DNA from: Escherichia coli
Lineage (GTDB): Bacteria; Pseudomonadota; Gammaproteobacteria; Enterobacterales; Enterobacteriaceae
DNA length: 64,000 bases
Reading direction: 5' to 3' (one strand)
Assembly (NCBI RefSeq): GCF_048403405.1
Contig: NZ_CP183129.1
Part shown: positions 2,254 through 13,484 of the stretch, piece after piece
Position numbering within the stretch: the first letter of the stretch is position 1
How the letters are laid out: every line of letters starts with the position of its first letter
Made by a program: the position numbers and the translations under genes
The notes under the pieces: model-generated
What the model was told of the DNA's origin: nothing
The model's database searches: none
The model's input: only the letters and a program-made list of their open reading frames with translations

Positions 2254-3261
<1,008 letters not shown>

Positions 3262-3590
3262 CTATTTGTTAGTGAATAAAAGGTTGCCTGTAAAATTACA
3301 AAAACCTTACGCAGCGTCAAGCGGAATCGTGTCAATCATTGCGACAAATCAATCCTGTGCCTAAGCATTACGCGACTGACTCGCCTCACTCTTCCTTTGG
3401 GCTTGAGACCACATGGGGTCGGCGTCCCGAATTTTAAAGGGCAATTACGATAAAAATGTGATTTTCATCACGATTTAGGTGCAGCCATTTCGTCGAGATC
3501 AAGTTTAGGACAAATTTTTGCCAGTTGGTGTTAATGTTTTGTTAGAATCAGTCACGTAATGTGAGCACGATTAAAGTGAGATGTGAGCAA

Positions 3591-4004
3591 ATGGCTAATA
3601 AACCTTCGGCAGAAGAACTGAAAAAAAATTTGTCCGAGATGAAGTTCTACGTGACGCAGAATCATGGGACAGAGCCGCCATTTACGGGTCGTTTACTGCA
3701 TAACAAGCGTGACGGCGTATATCACTGTTTGATCTGCGATGCCCCGCTGTTTCATTCCCAAACCAAGTATGATTCCGGCTGTGGCTGGCCCAGTTTCTAC
3801 GAACCGGTGAGTGAAGAATCCATTCGTTATATCAAAGACTTGTCACATGGAATGCAGCGCATAGAAATTCGTTGCGGTAACTGTGATGCCCATCTGGGGC
3901 ATGTCTTCCCCGACGGGCCGCAGCCAACGGGTGAACGTTATTGTGTTAACTCAGCCTCTTTACGCTTTACCGATGGCGAAAACGGCGAAGAAATCAACGG
4001 TTGA
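3591..4004 (+). CDS. msrB: peptide methionine-(R)-sulfoxide reductase MsrB
   Basis: 137-aa product from internal Met [10 protein letters not shown]; two CxxC zinc motifs ([16 protein letters not shown]) and catalytic RYCVNSA. Confidence 0.9.
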
Positions 4005-4045
4005 AAAAACGATTCAGCAACTTATTCCACAGGAGCGGAAAAATT

Positions 4046-4318
4046 ATGAATCTTGATGACATTATCAACAGCATGACGCTTGAGGTATACCAGCGTTTGT
4101 CGACCGCCGTTGAATTGGGCAAATGGCCTGATGGCGTTGCGTTGACCGAGGAACAAAAAGAGAACTGCCTGCAACTGGTGATGCTGTGGCAAGCCCGCAA
4201 TAATACCGAAGCACAGCATATGACAATTGACACAAATGGTCAGATGGTCATGAAGAGCAAACAACAGTTAAAAGAAGATTTTGGTATCTCAGCAAAGGCT
4301 ATTGCCATGTTTAAGTAA
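4046..4318 (+). CDS. yeaC: DUF1315 family protein YeaC
   Basis: 90-aa product starting MNLDDIINS, preceded by AGGAG Shine-Dalgarno at 4031-4035. Confidence 0.8.
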   Translation: MNLDDIINSMTLEVYQRLSTAVELGKWPDGVALTEEQKENCLQLVMLWQARNNTEAQHMTIDTNGQMVMKSKQQLKEDFGISAKAIAMFK

Positions 4319-4576
4319 GTGGTTTGTCCCCTTTTTGCCGCGGTTATAAAGGGGATAGCCAACAATAACCCCACGACTCATCTCAATTATCTCGTCACGA
4401 CCAGGCTAAGTCCCAGCCCGGTCTCTTGCAGTCGCGTTCACGCCTGAATGACTTCTCCTGAACTTAAGTCTCAGACCTATTTGGCCGGTAATCCCTCTCA
4501 AATTTGCTCATTTTGCGTTCCGCCTTCCATCAACCTGTAACAGATCCAGCCATTTTCTGCGTAATTGTGATCTGAG

Positions 4577-4610
4577 TTGTAAAACGCAGATCATTATCTG
4601 TGTTTTACAG
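4577..4610. promoter_or_regulatory. 34-bp imperfect palindrome (TGTAAAAC-N16-GTTTTACA with nested CAGAT-CATT-ATCTG) upstream of ydjL; candidate operator
   Basis: 8-bp perfect inverted repeat at 4578-4585 and 4602-4609 plus inner palindrome 4587-4600, about 80 bp upstream of the ydjL start. Confidence 0.4.
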
Positions 4611-4618
4611 ATTTAATG

Positions 4619-4649
4619 TTGACCTCAAAAATCATGTGGGTAAGTATGA
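4619..4649 (+). promoter_or_regulatory. putative sigma70 promoter of the ydjL operon (-35 TTGACC, -10-like TAAGTAT/TATGAT)
   Basis: consensus-like TTGACC at 4619-4624 followed 16-19 bp later by A/T-rich -10 candidates. Confidence 0.3.
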
Positions 4650-4687
4650 TGACCATCTAAGCAAAACAAAACACAGAGGATGACGCA

Positions 4688-5764
4688 ATGAAAGCACTGG
4701 CTCGGTTTGGCAAAGCCTTTGGCGGCTACAAGATGATCGATGTCCCACAACCCATTTGTGGCCCGGAAGATGTAGTGATTGAAATTAAAGCCGCGGCAAT
4801 CTGCGGCGCAGACATGAAGCACTACAATGTCGATAGCGGTTCTGATGAGTTTAACTCTATCCGCGGCCATGAGTTCGCAGGTTGTATTGCGCAGGTTGGT
4901 GAAAAAGTCAAAGACTGGAAAGTGGGGCAACGCGTCGTGTCGGATAACAGCGGTCACGTCTGCGGCGTTTGTCCGGCCTGTGAACAAGGTGATTTTCTGT
5001 GTTGTACAGAAAAAGTAAACCTTGGTCTGGATAACAATACCTGGGGCGGTGGTTTTTCCAAATATTGTCTGGTTCCTGGTGAAATTCTCAAAATTCATCG
5101 TCATGCATTGTGGGAAATCCCTGATGGTGTTGATTATGAGGACGCAGCCATACTTGACCCTATCTGTAATGCCTATAAATCCATCGCGCAGCAATCGAAA
5201 TTCCTCCCTGGTCAGGATGTGGTCGTCATCGGCACTGGCCCACTCGGGCTGTTCTCCGTACAAATGGCGCGGATTATGGGGGCGGTAAATATCGTCGTCG
5301 TTGGTCTACAAGAAGATGTGGCGGTCCGCTTCCCGGTTGCAAAAGAACTGGGTGCGACGGCAGTAGTAAATGGTTCTACCGAAGATGTGGTGGCGCGCTG
5401 CCAGCAAATTTGTGGCAAAGACAATCTGGGACTGGTGATTGAATGCTCCGGTGCCAATATCGCACTGAAACAAGCCATCGAAATGCTCCGTCCGAACGGG
5501 GAAGTGGTACGCGTTGGAATGGGCTTCAAACCTCTTGATTTCTCGATTAATGACATTACCGCCTGGAACAAAAGCATCATTGGGCATATGGCCTATGACT
5601 CCACCTCATGGCGTAACGCTCTCCGGCTATTAGCCAGCGGCGCTATCAAAGTCAAACCGATGATCACGCATCGTATCGGCCTGTCGCAATGGCGCGAAGG
5701 GTTTGATGCGATGGTCGATAAAACCGCAATCAAAGTGATCATGACTTACGACTTTGATGAATAA
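4688..5764 (+). CDS. ydjL: zinc-dependent alcohol/polyol dehydrogenase (MDR family)
   Basis: 358 aa; GHEFAG and Cys-rich structural zinc motif CGVCPACEQGDFLCC; first gene of compact ydj cluster. Confidence 0.85.
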   Translation: MKALARFGKAFGGYKMIDVPQPICGPEDVVIEIKAAAICGADMKHYNVDSGSDEFNSIRGHEFAGCIAQVGEKVKDWKVGQRVVSDNSGHVCGVCPACEQGDFLCCTEKVNLGLDNNTWGGGFSKYCLVPGEILKIHRHALWEIPDGVDYEDAAILDPICNAYKSIAQQSKFLPGQDVVVIGTGPLGLFSVQMARIMGAVNIVVVGLQEDVAVRFPVAKELGATAVVNGSTEDVVARCQQICGKDNLGLVIECSGANIALKQAIEMLRPNGEVVRVGMGFKPLDFSINDITAWNKSIIGHMAYDSTSWRNALRLLASGAIKVKPMITHRIGLSQWREGFDAMVDKTAIKVIMTYDFDE

Positions 5765-5790
5765 CTACTCTCCTGAAGGAACGTTATCGC

Positions 5791-7170
5791 ATGGAACAGA
5801 TAACAAAACCGCATTGTGGTGCACGGCTGGATCGCTTACCGGATTGCCGCTGGCATTCGTCAATGTTTGCCATCGTCTCGTTTGGCTTGCTTGTCTGCTG
5901 GAGTAATGCCGTTGGTGGCTTGATCCTCGCGCAGCTGAAAGAGTTGGGCTGGACAGATAATTCCACCACTGCCACATTCTCAGCAATCACGACCGCCGGA
6001 ATGTTTCTCGGTGCGCTGGTTGGCGGCATCATCGGTGACAAAACCGGTCGCAGAAATGCGTTCATCCTCTATGAGGCCATTCATATTGCCTCGATGGTGG
6101 TCGGTGCTTTTTCACCGAATATGGATTTCCTTATTGCCTGCCGTTTTGTGATGGGCGTTGGGCTGGGAGCTTTACTGGTGACGCTGTTTGCTGGTTTCAC
6201 CGAATATATGCCCGGTAGAAATCGCGGAACGTGGTCCAGTCGGGTTTCTTTTATTGGCAACTGGTCATATCCGCTCTGTTCATTGATTGCGATGGGACTC
6301 ACGCCGCTGATTAGTGCAGAGTGGAACTGGCGAGTACAACTGCTTATCCCTGCAATATTGTCGCTTATCGCTACGGCGCTGGCCTGGCGCTACTTTCCTG
6401 AATCCCCGCGCTGGCTGGAATCGCGCGGACGGTATCAGGAAGCCGAGAAAGTCATGCGGAGTATAGAAGAAGGCGTCATACGCCAGACGGGAAAACCTTT
6501 GCCGCCCGTGGTTATTGCTGATGACGGTAAAGCGCCACAAGCGGTGCCGTATTCAGCCTTAATGACAGGAGTATTACTGAAACGCGTGATATTAGGCTCT
6601 TGTGTGCTGATTGCCATGAACGTTGTGCAGTACACACTAATTAACTGGTTGCCAACAATATTCATGACCCAGGGGATTAATTTAAAAGACTCGATTGTTT
6701 TAAATACCATGAGTATGTTTGGCGCGCCATTTGGTATTTTTATTGCTATGCTGGTGATGGATAAAATTCCGCGTAAAACAATGGGTGTGGGGCTATTAAT
6801 CCTGATTGCGGTGCTCGGATATATCTATTCACTGCAAACCAGTATGTTGCTCATAACGTTGATTGGTTTCTTCCTGATTACTTTCGTCTATATGTACGTT
6901 TGCTATGCCTCGGCAGTGTATGTCCCTGAGATCTGGCCGACAGAGGCCAAATTACGTGGCTCCGGTCTGGCGAATGCAGTAGGGCGAATCAGTGGTATTG
7001 CCGCACCTTATGCCGTTGCAGTGCTGCTCAGTAGTTATGGCGTAACGGGAGTCTTTATTCTTCTGGGGGCGGTTTCAATTATTGTCGCAATTGCTATCGC
7101 CACCATTGGAATTGAAACCAAAGGTGTCTCCGTTGAAAGTTTAAGTATTGATGCAGTAGTCAATAAATAA
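5791..7170 (+). CDS. ydjK: MFS transporter (sugar/metabolite:H+ symporter type)
   Basis: 459 aa, about 12 predicted TM segments, MFS motif GDKTGRR; paralogous to YdjE in the same cluster. Confidence 0.85.
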   Translation: MEQITKPHCGARLDRLPDCRWHSSMFAIVSFGLLVCWSNAVGGLILAQLKELGWTDNSTTATFSAITTAGMFLGALVGGIIGDKTGRRNAFILYEAIHIASMVVGAFSPNMDFLIACRFVMGVGLGALLVTLFAGFTEYMPGRNRGTWSSRVSFIGNWSYPLCSLIAMGLTPLISAEWNWRVQLLIPAILSLIATALAWRYFPESPRWLESRGRYQEAEKVMRSIEEGVIRQTGKPLPPVVIADDGKAPQAVPYSALMTGVLLKRVILGSCVLIAMNVVQYTLINWLPTIFMTQGINLKDSIVLNTMSMFGAPFGIFIAMLVMDKIPRKTMGVGLLILIAVLGYIYSLQTSMLLITLIGFFLITFVYMYVCYASAVYVPEIWPTEAKLRGSGLANAVGRISGIAAPYAVAVLLSSYGVTGVFILLGAVSIIVAIAIATIGIETKGVSVESLSIDAVVNK

Positions 7171-7186
7171 TACTGGTGGATTCAAA

Positions 7187-8230
7187 ATGAAAAATTCAAA
7201 AGCAATATTGCAGGTGCCGGGCACAATGAAAATTATTTCAGCAGAAATACCTGTGCCTAAAGAAGATGAAGTTTTGATTAAAGTGGAATATGTCGGTATT
7301 TGTGGTTCAGATGTACATGGTTTTGAATCAGGCCCGTTTATTCCGCCTAAAGACCCAAATCAAGAAATTGGCTTGGGTCATGAATGCGCCGGGACGGTTG
7401 TGGCTGTGGGAAGCCGTGTGCGCAAATTTAAAGCGGGGGATCGGGTAAATATCGAACCTGGCGTTCCTTGCGGTCACTGTCGTTACTGTCTGGAAGGCAA
7501 ATATAACATCTGCCCGGACGTTGATTTTATGGCGACACAACCTAACTACCGCGGCGCATTAACGCACTATCTGTGTCATCCGGAGAGCTTTACTTACAAA
7601 CTGCCCGACAATATGGACATGATGGAAGGGGCGCTGGTGGAGCCTGCTGCAGTCGGGATGCATGCCGCGATGCTGGCAGATGTTAAACCGGGTAAGAAGA
7701 TAATTATTCTGGGAGCGGGTTGTATTGGTTTGATGACGTTGCAAGCGTGCAAATGCCTGGGAGCTACGGATATTGCCGTCGTTGATGTACTGGATAAACG
7801 TCTGACAATGGCGGAACAGCTCGGCGCGACAGTGGTTATTAACGGTGCAAAAGAAGACACTATTGCACGCTGTCAGCAATTTACCGAAGAAATGGGCGCA
7901 GATATTGTTTTCGAAACAGCGGGTTCTGCGGTCACCGTTAAACAGGCACCTTATCTGGTAATGCGCGGCGGTAAAATTATGATTGTTGGTACTGTACCGG
8001 GCGATTCGGCAATCAATTTCCTCAAAATCAATCGCGAAGTCACTATTCAGACAGTATTCCGCTATGCCAATCGTTATCCGGTCACGATTGAAGCTATTTC
8101 CTCAGGGCGATTCGATGTGAAATCGATGGTGACACATATTTACGATTATCAGGATGTACAACAGGCATTTGAAGAGTCGGTTAACAACAAACGCGACATT
8201 ATTAAAGGCGTTATTAAAATTAGCGATTAA
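7187..8230 (+). CDS. ydjJ: zinc-dependent alcohol/polyol dehydrogenase (MDR family)
   Basis: 347 aa; GHECAG and CGHCRYC zinc motifs; paralogue of YdjL. Confidence 0.85.
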   Translation: MKNSKAILQVPGTMKIISAEIPVPKEDEVLIKVEYVGICGSDVHGFESGPFIPPKDPNQEIGLGHECAGTVVAVGSRVRKFKAGDRVNIEPGVPCGHCRYCLEGKYNICPDVDFMATQPNYRGALTHYLCHPESFTYKLPDNMDMMEGALVEPAAVGMHAAMLADVKPGKKIIILGAGCIGLMTLQACKCLGATDIAVVDVLDKRLTMAEQLGATVVINGAKEDTIARCQQFTEEMGADIVFETAGSAVTVKQAPYLVMRGGKIMIVGTVPGDSAINFLKINREVTIQTVFRYANRYPVTIEAISSGRFDVKSMVTHIYDYQDVQQAFEESVNNKRDIIKGVIKISD

Positions 8231-8250
8231 TTAATACGGGAGAACAGAAT

Positions 8251-9087
8251 ATGCTCGCAGATATCAGATATTGGGAAAACGATGCCACAAATAAACATTA
8301 TGCAATTGCCCATTTTAACGTATGGAATGCAGAAATGTTGATGGGCGTTATCGACGCAGCCGAAGAAGCGAAATCACCGGTTATTATTTCTTTTGGTACA
8401 GGTTTTGTCGGGAACACCTCATTTGAAGATTTCTCTCACATGATGGTATCAATGGCAAAAAAAGCAACGGTGCCGGTAATAACTCATTGGGATCATGGTC
8501 GGAGTATGGAAATTATTCATAACGCCTGGACTCATGGTATGAATTCATTAATGCGTGATGCTTCCGCATTTGATTTCGAAGAAAATATTCGTTTAACCAA
8601 AGAGGCTGTTGATTTCTTCCATCCGCTGGGTATTCCGGTAGAGGCAGAATTAGGGCATGTCGGTAATGAAACCGTTTATGAAGAAGCGCTGGCGGGCTAT
8701 CACTATACCGATCCTGACCAGGCGGCTGAATTTGTTGAACGTACGGGCTGTGACTCATTGGCTGTCGCCATCGGCAACCAACATGGGGTTTATACGTCAG
8801 AGCCACAATTGAATTTTGAGGTCGTCAAACGCGTACGCGATGCCGTTTCTGTTCCGCTGGTTTTGCACGGCGCATCGGGGATCAGTGATACCGACATTAA
8901 AACTGCAATTTCGTTGGGTATCGCGAAAATCAACATTCATACGGAGCTCTGTCAGGCCGCAATGGTAGCAGTGAAAGAAAACCAGGATCAGCCTTTCCTG
9001 CATTTAGAACGTGAAGTACGTAAAGCTGTAAAAGAACGGGCATTGGAAAAAATTAAACTGTTCGGTTCTGATGGCAAAGCGGAATAA
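8251..9087 (+). CDS. ydjI: class II (metal-dependent) ketose-bisphosphate aldolase family protein
   Basis: 278 aa TIM-barrel aldolase-like sequence with HWDHG motif. Confidence 0.8.
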   Translation: MLADIRYWENDATNKHYAIAHFNVWNAEMLMGVIDAAEEAKSPVIISFGTGFVGNTSFEDFSHMMVSMAKKATVPVITHWDHGRSMEIIHNAWTHGMNSLMRDASAFDFEENIRLTKEAVDFFHPLGIPVEAELGHVGNETVYEEALAGYHYTDPDQAAEFVERTGCDSLAVAIGNQHGVYTSEPQLNFEVVKRVRDAVSVPLVLHGASGISDTDIKTAISLGIAKINIHTELCQAAMVAVKENQDQPFLHLEREVRKAVKERALEKIKLFGSDGKAE

Positions 9088-9091
9088 TGAT

Positions 9092-10039
9092 ATGGATAAT
9101 CTCGACGTTATTTGTATAGGTGCCGCTATTGTTGATATTCCATTGCAACCGGTCAGTAAAAATATCTTTGATGTGGATTCTTATCCTCTTGAAAGAATCG
9201 CAATGACCACCGGGGGTGATGCAATAAATGAAGCAACAATTATTTCTCGTCTGGGCCATCGCACAGCATTAATGAGTCGTATTGGTAAAGATGCCGCCGG
9301 GCAATTTATTCTCGACCATTGCCGCAAAGAGAATATTGATATTCAAAGCCTGAAGCAGGACGTCAGCATAGATACCTCAATTAACGTTGGACTGGTGACG
9401 GAGGATGGCGAGCGGACGTTTGTCACAAACTGTAACGGCAGTCTGTGGAAATTGAATATTGACGATGTTGATTTTTCGCGGTTTTCTCAGGCGAAATTAT
9501 TATCTCTGGCCAGTATTTTCAACAGTCCTCTATTGGATGGTAAAGCGCTAACAGAAATTTTTACGCAAGCTAAAGCCCGGCAGATGATTATCTGTGCCGA
9601 TATGATCAAACCGCGGTTGAATGAAACGCTGGATGATATTTGCGAAGCATTGAGTTATGTCGATTATCTGTTTCCTAATTATGCCGAGGCAAAATTACTC
9701 ACCGGGAAAGAGACACTGGAGGAAATTGCTGACTGCTTTCTTGCGTGCGGCGTAAAAACGGTGGTGATTAAAACGGGTAAAGACGGCTGCTTTATCAAGC
9801 GTGGTGACATGACGATGAAGGTGCCGGCGGTCGCAGGAATAACCGCCATCGACACCATTGGCGCGGGCGATAACTTTGCTTCAGGTTTTATTGCGGCACT
9901 GTTAGAAGGCAAAAATCTGCGTGAATGCGCACGCTTTGCCAATGCAACGGCGGCTATCTCGGTTCTAAGCGTCGGTGCCTCCACCGGCGTAAAAAACAGA
10001 AAGCTGGTCGAACAATTGCTGGAAGAATACGAAGGATAA
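9092..10039 (+). CDS. ydjH: sugar kinase of the ribokinase/PfkB family
   Basis: 315 aa from Met MDNLDVICIG; PfkB signature GAGDNFASGF; ORF track start 9071 would overlap ydjI. Confidence 0.8.
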   Translation: MDNLDVICIGAAIVDIPLQPVSKNIFDVDSYPLERIAMTTGGDAINEATIISRLGHRTALMSRIGKDAAGQFILDHCRKENIDIQSLKQDVSIDTSINVGLVTEDGERTFVTNCNGSLWKLNIDDVDFSRFSQAKLLSLASIFNSPLLDGKALTEIFTQAKARQMIICADMIKPRLNETLDDICEALSYVDYLFPNYAEAKLLTGKETLEEIADCFLACGVKTVVIKTGKDGCFIKRGDMTMKVPAVAGITAIDTIGAGDNFASGFIAALLEGKNLRECARFANATAAISVLSVGASTGVKNRKLVEQLLEEYEG

Positions 10040-10048
10040 TGAAGGCAA

Positions 10049-11029
10049 ATGAAAAAGATACCTTTAGGCACAACGGATATTACGCTTTCGCGAATGGGGT
10101 TGGGGACATGGGCCATTGGCGGCGGTCCTGCATGGAATGGCGATCTCGATCGACAAATATGTATTGATACGATTCTTGAAGCCCATCGTTGCGGCATTAA
10201 CCTGATTGATACTGCGCCAGGATATAACTTTGGCAATAGTGAAGTTATCGTCGGTCAGGCGTTAAAAAAACTGCCCCGTGAACAGGTTGTAGTAGAAACC
10301 AAATGCGGCATTGTCTGGGAACGAAAAGGGAGTTTATTCAACAAAGTTGGCGATCGGCAGTTGTATAAAAACCTTTCCCCGGAATCTATCCGCAAAGAGG
10401 TAGAAGCCAGCTTGCAACGTCTGGGTATTGATTACATCGATATCTACATGACGCACTGGCAGTCGGTGCCGCCATTTTTTACGCCGATCGCTGAAACTGT
10501 CGCAGTGCTCAATGAGTTAAAGGACGAAGGGAAAATTCGCGCTATAGGCGCTGCTAACGTCGATGCTGACCATATCCGCGAGTATCTGCAATATGGTGAA
10601 CTGGATATTATTCAGGCGAAATACAGTATCCTCGACCGGGCAATGGAAAGCGAACTGCTGCCGCTATGTCGTGATAATGGCATTGTGGTACAGGTTTATT
10701 CGCCGTTAGAGCAGGGATTGTTGACCGGTACCATCACTCGTGATTACGTTCCGGGCGGCGCTCGGGCAAATAAAGTCTGGTTCCAGCGTGAAAACATGCT
10801 GAAAGTGATTGATATGCTTGAACAGTGGCAGCCACTCTGTGCTCGTTATCAGTGCACAATTCCCACTCTGGCACTGGCGTGGATATTAAAACAGAGTGAT
10901 TTAATCTCCATTCTTAGTGGGGCTACTGCACCGGAACAGGTACGCGAAAATGTCGCGGCATTGAATATCAACTTATCGGATGCAGACGCAACATTGATGA
11001 GGGAAATGGCAGAGGCCCTGGAGCGTTAA
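10049..11029 (+). CDS. ydjG: aldo-keto reductase (NADH-dependent methylglyoxal reductase type)
   Basis: 326 aa AKR-family ORF, 9 bp after ydjH. Confidence 0.85.
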   Translation: MKKIPLGTTDITLSRMGLGTWAIGGGPAWNGDLDRQICIDTILEAHRCGINLIDTAPGYNFGNSEVIVGQALKKLPREQVVVETKCGIVWERKGSLFNKVGDRQLYKNLSPESIRKEVEASLQRLGIDYIDIYMTHWQSVPPFFTPIAETVAVLNELKDEGKIRAIGAANVDADHIREYLQYGELDIIQAKYSILDRAMESELLPLCRDNGIVVQVYSPLEQGLLTGTITRDYVPGGARANKVWFQRENMLKVIDMLEQWQPLCARYQCTIPTLALAWILKQSDLISILSGATAPEQVRENVAALNINLSDADATLMREMAEALER

Positions 11030-11165
11030 ATACTCAACACGATTCACCTCTGTTTCTGTGAAAACTGTGATGAAAATCTGTGATTCAAACAGGTTATTTT
11101 GAAAGTAAACATCGGTTATGCGATAATCGCGCTAATGTGATGTAAAAAGATACAGGGGTGTAATC

Positions 11166-11923
11166 GTGGCGGCAAAAGACAGGATTCAGGCAATTAAGCA
11201 AATGGTTGCCAACGATAAAAAGGTGACAGTCTCAAATTTGAGTGGGATTTTTCAGGTAACCGAAGAAACCATTCGCCGCGATCTCGAGAAGCTGGAAGAT
11301 GAAGGCTTTTTGACCAGAACCTATGGTGGTGCTGTTTTAAATACAGCGATGTTGACGGAGAATATCCATTTTTATAAGCGCGCTTCATCGTTTTATGAAG
11401 AGAAGCAGCTTATTGCACGCAAGGCACTACCCTTTATCGACAATAAAACCACTATGGCAGCCGATTCCAGTAGTACCGTTATGGAATTGCTCAAATTGTT
11501 GCAGGACCGTAGTGACCTGACGTTGCTAACTAACTCGGCGGAAGCGATTCATGTTCTGGCTCAATCAGAAATTAAAGTCGTTTCAACGGGGGGGAACTAA
11601 ACAAAAATACACTTTCCCTGCAAGGAAGAATTACTAAAGAGATCATCAGCCGCTACCATGTCGATATCATGGTAATGAGTTGTAAAGGTCTTGATATTAA
11701 CAGCGGCGCGCTGGACTCTAACGAAGCGGAAGCTGAAATCAAAAAGACAATGATCCGTCAGGCGACAGAGGTTGCGTTATTGGTTGATCACTCTAAGTTT
11801 GATCGCAAAGCTTTTGTCCAGTTAGCTGACTTTAGTCATATTAATTACATAATAACTGATAAATCACCGGGTGCAGAGTGGATAGCATTTTGCAAAGACA
11901 ATAATATCCAGCTGGTGTGGTAA
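11166..11923 (+). pseudogene. ydjF: DeoR-family transcriptional regulator interrupted by a -1 frameshift in a G7 tract (11588-11594)
   Basis: N-terminal HTH ORF 11166-11600 (GTG start) and C-terminal sugar-binding-domain ORF 11669-11923 are in different frames; reading continues as ..VVSTGG/GELNKNTLSLQGR.. if one nucleotide is added in the G run. Confidence 0.6.
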
Positions 11924-12040
11924 TTTAAGCACACGTTGTCAATATTATTTGTTCCTGCGCCTGGAAAATAAAATGATGATAAAGATGCGGCAAGTGAATT
12001 TGCCGCAATTGCTACCTTTTTAGCAAATCCGAGGCACCTA

Positions 12041-13399
12041 ATGGAACAATATGATCAAATTGGCGCAAGACTGGACCGCTTGCCTTTGGCCCGGTTTCAT
12101 TATCGTATATTTGGTATTATAAGCTTTAGTCTGTTATTAACGGGTTTTTTGAGTTATTCAGGCAATGTTGTTTTAGCAAAGCTGGTAAGCAATGGATGGT
12201 CAAATAATTTCCTCAATGCCGCCTTTACCTCGGCATTAATGTTTGGTTATTTCATCGGCTCTCTTACCGGTGGGTTCATCGGTGATTATTTTGGGCGGCG
12301 CAGGGCTTTTCGCATAAATCTTCTCATCGTCGGTATTGCGGCAACAGGGGCCGCTTTTGTCCCTGATATGTACTGGCTCATCTTCTTTCGCTTCCTGATG
12401 GGCACAGGAATGGGGGCGCTGATTATGGTTGGCTATGCTTCGTTTACGGAGTTTATCCCCGCGACGGTGCGTGGAAAATGGTCCGCGCGGCTCTCATTTG
12501 TCGGTAACTGGTCGCCCATGTTGTCTGCGGCGATAGGCGTGGTGGTTATCGCTTTTTTTAGTTGGCGGATAATGTTTCTGCTGGGTGGTATTGTCATACT
12601 GTTAGCCTGGTTTCTCTCAGGTAAATACTTTATTGAGTCGCCTCGATGGTTGGCGGGGAAAGGACAAATCGCAGGTGCAGAAAGCCAACTTCGTGAAGTA
12701 GAGCAGCAAATTGAAAGAGAGAAGAGTGTTCGTTTACCCCCGCTTACTTTGAATCAGAGCAACAGCAAGGCTAACGTAATCAATGGTACTTTCTGGCTGC
12801 TGTTTAAAGGGGAAATGTTACGACGTACATTAGTCGCGATTACTGTTTTAATTGCAATGAATATTTCACTTTATACCATCACCGTATGGATACCGACCAT
12901 ATTTGTTAACTCCGGCATTGATGTCGATAAATCAATATTAATGACTGCTGTTATTATGATTGGCGCTCCGGTAGGAATATTTATTGCGGCATTAATTATT
13001 GATCATTTTCCTCGTCGATTATTTGGCTCCGCCTTACTTATTATTATTGCCGTGTTAGGCTATATCTATTCAATTCAGACTACAGAGTGGGCGATTTTAA
13101 TCTATGGCCTGGTGATGATCTTCTTTTTATACATGTATGTTTGCTTCGCGTCGGCGGTTTATATCCCGGAGCTCTGGCCAACGCATTTACGCTTGCGCGG
13201 TTCGGGTTTCGTTAATGCCGTCGGACGGATCGTCGCGGTCTTCACGCCTTATGGCGTTGCGGCACTATTAACGCATTATGGGTCAATCACGGTGTTTATG
13301 GTGCTTGGCGTGATGTTAGTGCTCTGTGCGCTGGTTCTCTCCATTTTTGGCATCGAAACGCGGAAGGTGTCGCTGGAAGAGATTTCTGAGGTGAATTAA
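12041..13399 (+). CDS. ydjE: MFS transporter, paralogue of YdjK
   Basis: 452 aa; N-terminus MEQ..ARLDRLP and motif GDYFGRR parallel YdjK. Confidence 0.85.
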   Translation: MEQYDQIGARLDRLPLARFHYRIFGIISFSLLLTGFLSYSGNVVLAKLVSNGWSNNFLNAAFTSALMFGYFIGSLTGGFIGDYFGRRRAFRINLLIVGIAATGAAFVPDMYWLIFFRFLMGTGMGALIMVGYASFTEFIPATVRGKWSARLSFVGNWSPMLSAAIGVVVIAFFSWRIMFLLGGIVILLAWFLSGKYFIESPRWLAGKGQIAGAESQLREVEQQIEREKSVRLPPLTLNQSNSKANVINGTFWLLFKGEMLRRTLVAITVLIAMNISLYTITVWIPTIFVNSGIDVDKSILMTAVIMIGAPVGIFIAALIIDHFPRRLFGSALLIIIAVLGYIYSIQTTEWAILIYGLVMIFFLYMYVCFASAVYIPELWPTHLRLRGSGFVNAVGRIVAVFTPYGVAALLTHYGSITVFMVLGVMLVLCALVLSIFGIETRKVSLEEISEVN

Positions 13400-13449: not shown

Positions 13450-13484
13450 CTGGCCTACAATGGCAGTACAGAATTGTAGGCCAG
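13450..13484. terminator. bidirectional terminator-like hairpin between convergent ydjE and pncA
   Basis: perfect 12-bp inverted repeat CTGGCCTACAAT / ATTGTAGGCCAG with 11-nt loop. Confidence 0.5.

Follow-up and report, generated by a model that had tools for sequence, protein, structure and literature searches.

The ydjLKJIHG-ydjF-ydjE carbohydrate-breakdown cluster of Escherichia coli: a candidate YdjF operator, an interrupted regulator gene and a patchy distribution across phyla

What does the ydj cluster of Escherichia coli break down, and how is it controlled? We addressed these questions in a 64,000-nucleotide stretch of contig NZ_CP183129.1 (assembly GCF_048403405.1), hereafter the window, to which all coordinates refer unless another locus is named. 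The cluster, ydjLKJIHG-ydjF-ydjE, spans exactly 4688-13399 and consists of eight genes on one strand (Table 1). It is an already annotated and partly studied carbohydrate-breakdown cluster, which the initial annotation recognised correctly, and is not novel. A 10.5-kb query around it matches 5425 of the 5426 complete RefSeq E. coli genomes, and the RefSeq annotation under the match reads ydjL, ydjK, ydjJ, ydjI, ydjH, ydjG, ydjF and ydjE. At one end it borders on gapA-msrB-yeaC and at the opposite end on pncA-ansA-sppA. The K-12 cluster (b1776-b1769 region) has the same eight genes in the same order and with the same spacing between msrB-yeaC and pncA-ansA; with 97.8% identity of the DNA and 98-99% identity of the proteins, the two clusters are orthologous. 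Seven of the eight reading frames are intact in the window. The exception is ydjF, whose frameshift falls in a G run absent from K-12.

In our assessment the cluster is quite probably a catabolic module of three transcription units, with a route of uptake, redox, kinase and aldolase steps under the control of YdjF and CRP. The block is not one transcript; it comprises the units ydjLKJIHG, ydjF and ydjE. The six genes from ydjL to ydjG are as tightly spaced as first described, with gaps of 26, 16, 20, 4 and 9 bp, which leave no space for promoters between them, whereas 136 bp precede ydjF and 117 bp precede ydjE. No intrinsic terminator is predicted on the + strand in the spacers from ydjL to ydjG, the + strand hits near 10453-10471 falling inside ydjG, and an Rfam scan of the whole window found no RNA family. 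Since ydjF has its own sigma-70 promoter, it forms a separate unit; the same hexamers have been listed as a constitutive RpoD promoter (PMC3946193). The longest open reading frame (ORF) of ydjH begins at 9071 and overlaps the end of ydjI, but PGAP and the PDB construct begin with the ATG at 9092, and the 4-bp gap follows from this start.

The families assigned at the outset to the enzymes and transporters hold in profile models, PDB matches and motifs. YdjI passes TIGR00167 (324.5 bits against a cut-off of 215.6) and matches PDB 6OFU, 'YdjI aldolase', with 622 bits. It keeps the conserved histidine motifs of the family (HWDHG 79-83, ELGHVG 133-138, IGNQHG 174-179 and LHGASG 205-210), which we assign as metal ligands. 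It scores below the cut-off of every curated equivalog model for fructose-bisphosphate and tagatose-bisphosphate aldolases. YdjH is the protein of PDB 3H49/3IN1 and has a PF00294 domain with the GAGD anion-hole motif (in DTIGAGDNF 254-262); it passes no specific kinase equivalog. YdjG passes its own NCBIfam equivalog, NF049922 (626.6 bits against 550). YdjL (GHEFAG 60-65, cysteine cluster 92-106, GTGPLG 182-187) and YdjJ (domains ADH_N and ADH_zinc_N; 767 bits to PDB 5VM2) both carry the GHExxG catalytic-zinc motif, the four-cysteine structural-zinc loop and the GxGxxG Rossmann motif, and neither passes any substrate-specific equivalog. YdjK and YdjE have MFS/Sugar_tr domains with a GDxxGRR loop (GDKTGRR 82-88 in YdjK) and score best against aromatic-acid:H+ symporters. 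In its intact allele (locus L001 of our collection), YdjF unites HTH_DeoR and DeoRC in a single 252-aa protein of the DeoR/GlpR type, which passes no specific regulator model.

The initial annotation also held that the cluster is built from paralogue pairs. This is true of YdjK and YdjE, which are 44% identical over 455 aa and have MEQ..ARLDRLP and GDxxGRR in common, but not of YdjL and YdjJ, which had been called clear paralogues. These two dehydrogenases are 28% identical and belong to different subfamilies: the nearest relatives of YdjL are L-threonine 3-dehydrogenases, and those of YdjJ are ketose reductase and sorbitol dehydrogenase, with YdjJ far nearer to ketose reductase (1.9e-75) than to YdjL (3.1e-35). 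Both resemble their respective orthologues in other phyla much more than they resemble one another, and neither is the other's closest relative. Judged by sequence, they are members of one superfamily and not a duplicate pair.

In the route that we propose, YdjK, and perhaps YdjE, would import a charged, probably carboxylate-ended polyol or ketose of at least six carbons, which YdjL, YdjJ and YdjG would interconvert to a 2-ketose. YdjH would phosphorylate C1 of the ketose and YdjI would split the resulting ketose-1-phosphate into dihydroxyacetone phosphate (DHAP) and an aldehyde-acid, two steps that others have shown in vitro; the aldehyde-acid would then be open to processing by one of the reductases. 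Both enzymes are reportedly the subject of two 2019 papers in Biochemistry, whose content is given here as later papers cite it. The likeness to the sulfo-Embden-Meyerhof-Parnas (sulfo-EMP; yihS/V/T/U) and fructose-1-phosphate routes of E. coli is an analogy of mechanism, not of membership. There, a PfkB kinase phosphorylates C1 of a 2-ketose whose tail is anionic or neutral, the product is split into DHAP and an aldehyde, and a reductase follows. The ydj cluster differs in that its aldolase is of class II and its ketose presumably comes from polyol dehydrogenases and not from an isomerase. The gat/aga clusters (GatY/KbaY, GatD, GatR/AgaR) resemble it in having a class II aldolase of ketose-bisphosphate type, a Zn-dependent dehydrogenase and a DeoR regulator, and YdjI reaches 240-246 bits against the tagatose-bisphosphate aldolase models, whose curated cut-offs are 383-384. 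However, ydj has no phosphotransferase system and no GatZ/KbaZ partner, and YdjI, unlike the gat/aga aldolases, acts on the 1-phosphate of long uronate ketoses according to two papers (PMC9602453, PMC11194214).

The same papers bear out the initial annotation, which gave in vitro activity on unusual long-chain ketoses or sugar acids. They state that YdjH and YdjI prefer long-chain ketoses with a carboxylate terminus and that L-glycero-L-galacto-octuluronate(-1-phosphate), a compound not known in nature, is the best substrate in vitro (PMC9602453, PMC11194214). Expression has been linked to the gut. A ydjL promoter reporter was off in culture and on in the mouse gut, and YdjG was more abundant in the germ-free mouse cecum than in vitro (PMC6561318). 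These observations point to an inducer supplied by the diet or the host, or else simply to relief from catabolite repression.

Upstream of ydjL, a 369-bp region holds a stretch that is conserved across Enterobacterales (alignment A1). Transcription of the operon would start at the promoter in this region, and YdjF would act through an exact 15-bp palindrome, TCTKTRAAACAMAGA, that ends 7 nt upstream of the -35-like element. YdjF is probably a repressor, which an intermediate of the pathway would release, and cAMP-CRP would help to activate the operon. We propose that the palindrome is the YdjF operator. Its consensus was derived from the Firmicutes regions upstream of ydjL. The exact palindrome occurs in 40 of 86 loci, nearly always about 90-250 nt upstream of ydjL, and if up to two mismatches are allowed, 60 of 77 loci in several phyla have this box between -250 and -20 of ydjL, where 0.02 would be expected per 230 nt. 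The spacing from the box to a downstream TTGA is exactly 7 nt in 33 of these 60 loci and 6-8 nt in 50. Three of the four best matches in the 64 kb fall within the ydj cluster. Within the conserved stretch upstream of ydjL, the inverted repeat 4578-4591 / 4596-4609, whose right arm is the exact palindrome, is 93% complementary. Firmicutes have further copies upstream of ydjF and of a carrier gene of the DAACS family, and three loci without ydjF (L052, L054 and L057) have no palindrome either. Near-consensus promoters and half-sites in the spacer of the Firmicutes regions point to repression by YdjF. The copy inside ydjL is conserved in Enterobacterales only, and coding conservation could explain it.

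CRP is unlikely to bind the palindrome, whose conservation is just as strong in Firmicutes and Actinobacteria and which accompanies ydjF. The TGTGA further upstream is a separate element and the only one specific to Enterobacterales; it may be half of a CRP site. A transcriptome study lists ydjLKJIHG under 'Crp activation', an activation that was inferred there (PMC8085971). Just ahead of the ribosome-binding site, the ydjL leader at 4668-4683 (AAAACACAGAGGATGA), which has its complement at 4591-4606, contains a palindrome half-site; possible roles for it are an additional half-site of the operator and a leader RNA hairpin.

Several points weigh against this account of the cluster and its control. 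The enrichment of the palindrome is partly circular, because the consensus was counted in regions that had also supplied it. Less exposed to this circularity are the exact match in Enterobacterales, the extra copies at ydjF and the DAACS gene, and the absence from ydjF-less loci. In the literature searched, YdjF is listed as an uncharacterised transcription factor. The position of its proposed box, upstream of the -35 element, is one that activators use as well, and FucR, of the same regulator family, is an activator; the ydjF frameshift could thus silence the operon rather than derepress it. In a scan of the window no box was found upstream of ydjE, whose membership in the module is by position only. 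On the enzymatic side, our literature search, which covered the primary YdjH/YdjI work through citing papers, returned no activity for YdjL, YdjJ, YdjK or YdjE, and reduction of methylglyoxal is the only activity of YdjG that has been tested (PMC6561318). No source in nature is known for the best in vitro substrate (PMC9602453), which leaves the proposed route putative as the physiological pathway.

The activity of YdjG on methylglyoxal (PMC6561318), after which NCBIfam names the protein, also lends itself to a different reading, in which the cluster serves detoxification or stress: YdjG and the dehydrogenases would reduce reactive aldehydes such as methylglyoxal, and the transporters would move stress-related solutes. 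Overexpression of ydjK improved growth in high salt, as cited in PMC6561318, and resistance to lactic acid correlated with the presence of ydj genes in isolates from meat plants (PMC9602453). However, that correlation is confounded by phylogroup, ydjI being present in 29.9% of the B1 isolates as against 97-100% of those of A, B2, D and E (PMC9602453). Under CRP control, the combination of a kinase with a DHAP aldolase and a DeoR regulator is the signature of sugar catabolism, and the sugar specificity of YdjH and YdjI is defined (PMC9602453, PMC11194214). We regard a role in detoxification as quite improbable. A closer competitor, though still an unlikely one, is that the cluster in reality serves a neutral polyol or ketose, such as a hexitol or heptitol from food, and that the preference for eight carbons and a carboxylate end is a side activity in vitro. 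The closeness of YdjJ to sorbitol dehydrogenase and ketose reductase is in its favour, as are two features of the loci in other phyla described below, an AlsE-like sugar-phosphate 3-epimerase and, in some versions, a sugar ATP-binding cassette (ABC) transporter of CUT1 type. Against it, both YdjH and YdjI prefer a negatively charged terminus (PMC9602453), the alternative transporters found elsewhere include the carboxylate/amino-acid types DAACS and LIV/Urt-type ABC, and the best matches of YdjK and YdjE are aromatic-acid:H+ symporters. These transporter types and symporter matches fit an anionic substrate, if weakly.

How far the module extends beyond E. coli was surveyed by a YdjI scan with one genome per species, which gave 80 loci onto which all eight E. 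coli proteins were then mapped. Synteny was found in other Enterobacterales and also in Firmicutes, Actinobacteria and Synergistaceae. The order ydjL-(K)-J-I-H-G-F is present in Lachnospiraceae, Mediterraneibacter, Blautia and Clostridium puniceum, in Veillonella, Megamonas, Anaerococcus and Erysipelotrichaceae, and in Atopobiaceae, Parafannyhessea and one Synergistaceae genome, while Gilliamella carries ydj genes in rearranged order and ydjE is almost wholly limited to Enterobacterales. In loci outside Enterobacterales, identity to the E. coli protein is 74-87% for YdjI, 68-86% for YdjL, 54-80% for YdjJ, 50-75% for YdjK, 57-69% for YdjG, 46-74% for YdjH and 31-62% for YdjF. Recent transfer across phyla as the source of the high YdjI identity was ruled out, because third codon positions are 25-50% identical and the guanine-plus-cytosine content of the genes tracks that of the host (31% to 67%). 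The ydj cluster appears to be an old module of patchy occurrence, with very strong constraint on its core enzymes.

Many Firmicutes loci carry accessory genes. The AlsE-like 3-epimerase (254.5 bits against a cut-off of 271) stands between ydjL and ydjK in 28 loci, and the DAACS-family carrier follows ydjF in 28 loci, with palindrome copies ahead of the carrier gene; examples of the two lie at 4304-4999 of L026 and 10731-12095 of L041. Other loci replace ydjK by a CUT1-type ABC system or by a LIV/Urt-type ABC transporter, the latter in some cases together with an FGGY kinase. The 5-oxoprolinase, aminotransferase and LysR genes beside some Firmicutes loci look like unrelated neighbours.

What remains is the state of the regulator itself. 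It is of the DeoR family, as the initial annotation had it, but in the window ydjF is interrupted by a one-base deletion, with seven G residues where the intact alleles of the lineage have eight. The frame then runs into a stop at 11598-11600, which leaves a product of 144 aa, and the rest of the sensor domain lies in an 84-aa ORF (11669-11923). The Pfam domains HTH_DeoR and DeoRC are accordingly split over two ORFs instead of standing in one polypeptide. Should the deletion be real and YdjF act as a repressor, constitutive expression of the operon would be expected in this strain. The G run was created by a synonymous GGT-to-GGG change that has no counterpart in K-12. Because K-12 has GGTGGGG at this place, the slippage-prone run is restricted to one allele group, of about 947 complete genomes. 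Among complete RefSeq genomes the G7 allele is found in only one, B1.H1.39, where PGAP labels ydjF 'frameshifted' and which shows 491 differences from the window over 50 kb. In public contigs, the 144-residue product is found as an exact match on 34, and the intact protein of the same allele on at least 1000. Ten G7 contigs that were inspected have haplotypes 3 to 158 substitutions away from the window per 6.4 kb; some are without a further indel and others have several homopolymer indels. Since the change is found on such widely differing haplotypes, it is recurrent.

This recurrence reflects either genuine slippage, with a hotspot in a regulator gene, or a homopolymer error that sequencing makes systematically, and ydjF of the window is correspondingly either a frameshifted pseudogene or the product of such an error. 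That the frameshift arose in sequencing or assembly, with the regulator intact in the living strain, is a serious possibility to which we give somewhat less than an even chance. The run is the sole G/C run of at least 7 in the first 50 kb of the window, such runs are error-prone, and five of the G7 contigs (L089, L090, L092, L093 and L095) also have homopolymer indels that split ydjE or ydjG. However, comparison with strain TUM14771 over the same 50 kb shows 7 substitutions and a single indel, the ydjF run, with all 15 A/T runs of at least 7 in agreement, and G7 is also found in five contigs otherwise free of indels (L087, L088, L091, L094 and L096), whose haplotypes are 3 to 154 single-nucleotide polymorphisms apart per 6.4 kb.

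Taken over all loci, we tentatively see in ydj an ancient self-contained regulon, with its own regulator and operator, of Enterobacterales, gut Clostridia, Veillonellaceae, Actinobacteria and Synergistaceae, which would be under unusually strong purifying selection and degrade a probably anionic gut carbohydrate, and in which the ydjF G run would yield recurrent natural regulator-null variants; this may well turn out otherwise. If it is true, ydj breaks down a probably anionic carbohydrate that is common in animal guts. With two enzymes of known structure, unusual in vitro specificities and a gut-induced promoter, ydj is among the better-known orphan pathways of E. coli, and our additions are modest: a broken regulator, block-wise loss in a fifth of E. 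coli, a module with accessory genes that crosses phyla, and a candidate operator. The candidate operator can be used in binding and ligand-release assays. A highly conserved module in many gut anaerobes, with alternative transporters and an extra epimerase, makes the substrate question easier to attack, and the natural frameshift alleles of ydjF, if they are true regulator-null variants, could be used directly in the substrate search.

Table 1. Features of the ydj region in the 64-kb window
Feature	Position	Strand	Remarks
Presence/absence block, promoter region through ydjE	4354-13390 (approximate)		from flank homology breakpoints
TGTGA	4566-4570	+	invariant in Enterobacterales (A1); possible CRP half-site, right half poor
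Imperfect upstream palindrome copy	4577-4591	+	inverted repeat with the exact copy
Exact 15-bp palindrome	4597-4611	-	proposed YdjF operator
TTGACC, -35-like element of putative ydjL promoter	4619-4624	+	7 nt downstream of the box; GTTGA invariant in A1
Putative ydjL -10 element	about 4642-4647	+	tentative
ydjL	4688-5764	+	Zn-dependent medium-chain dehydrogenase, threonine-dehydrogenase-like
One-mismatch box copy inside ydjL	4996-5010	-	possible auxiliary operator
ydjK	5791-7170	+	MFS transporter
ydjJ	7187-8230	+	Zn-dependent polyol dehydrogenase, sorbitol-dehydrogenase-like
ydjI	8251-9087	+	class II (metal-dependent) DHAP aldolase
ydjH	9092-10039	+	PfkB-family sugar kinase; PGAP start
ydjG	10049-11029	+	aldo-keto reductase
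Two-mismatch box copy	11077-11091	-	7 nt upstream of the ydjF -35; possible autoregulation
ydjF promoter, TTGAAA-17-GATAAT	11099-11127	+	promoter scan, sigma-70
ydjF	11166-11923	+	DeoR-family regulator, frameshifted in the window
G run in ydjF	11588-11594	+	G7; G8 in intact alleles of the lineage; GGTGGGG in K-12
ydjE	12041-13399	+	second MFS transporter, ydjK paralogue
REP-like perfect 12-bp inverted repeat	13450-13484		CTGGCCTACAAT / ATTGTAGGCCAG, right block edge

Within E. coli the block is either present or absent as a whole. About 1160 of the 5425 genomes (about 21%) match the flanks only, and in these yeaC directly abuts pncA. In the genomes without the block, homology to the window breaks off near 4353 and is found again from about 13388, so that the promoter region and all eight genes are present or absent as one unit. 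A block at the same site is found in Escherichia whittamii, Citrobacter, the Klebsiella oxytoca group, Raoultella, Yokenella and Intestinirhabdus, and because related genera carry it there, its absence from E. coli genomes is best read as loss. The 12-bp inverted repeat at the right edge (CTGGCCTACAAT / ATTGTAGGCCAG), which resembles a repetitive extragenic palindromic (REP) element, is still present in genomes without the block.

Some loci depart from this arrangement in detail. Citrobacter, Klebsiella and Raoultella (L009-L021, at about 2400-4400 of these loci) have about 2 kb more between yeaC and ydjL than E. coli. Some E. coli genomes, among them O157:H7 F6294 (H62) and strain HeN100 (H72), have insertion sequences (IS3 family, IS5 and IS1) inside the block, beside or within the MFS genes. 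In Klebsiella michiganensis (L073, about 5500-6900) ydjK is seemingly split into two ORFs, 220 and 238 codons long, in an otherwise intact cluster.

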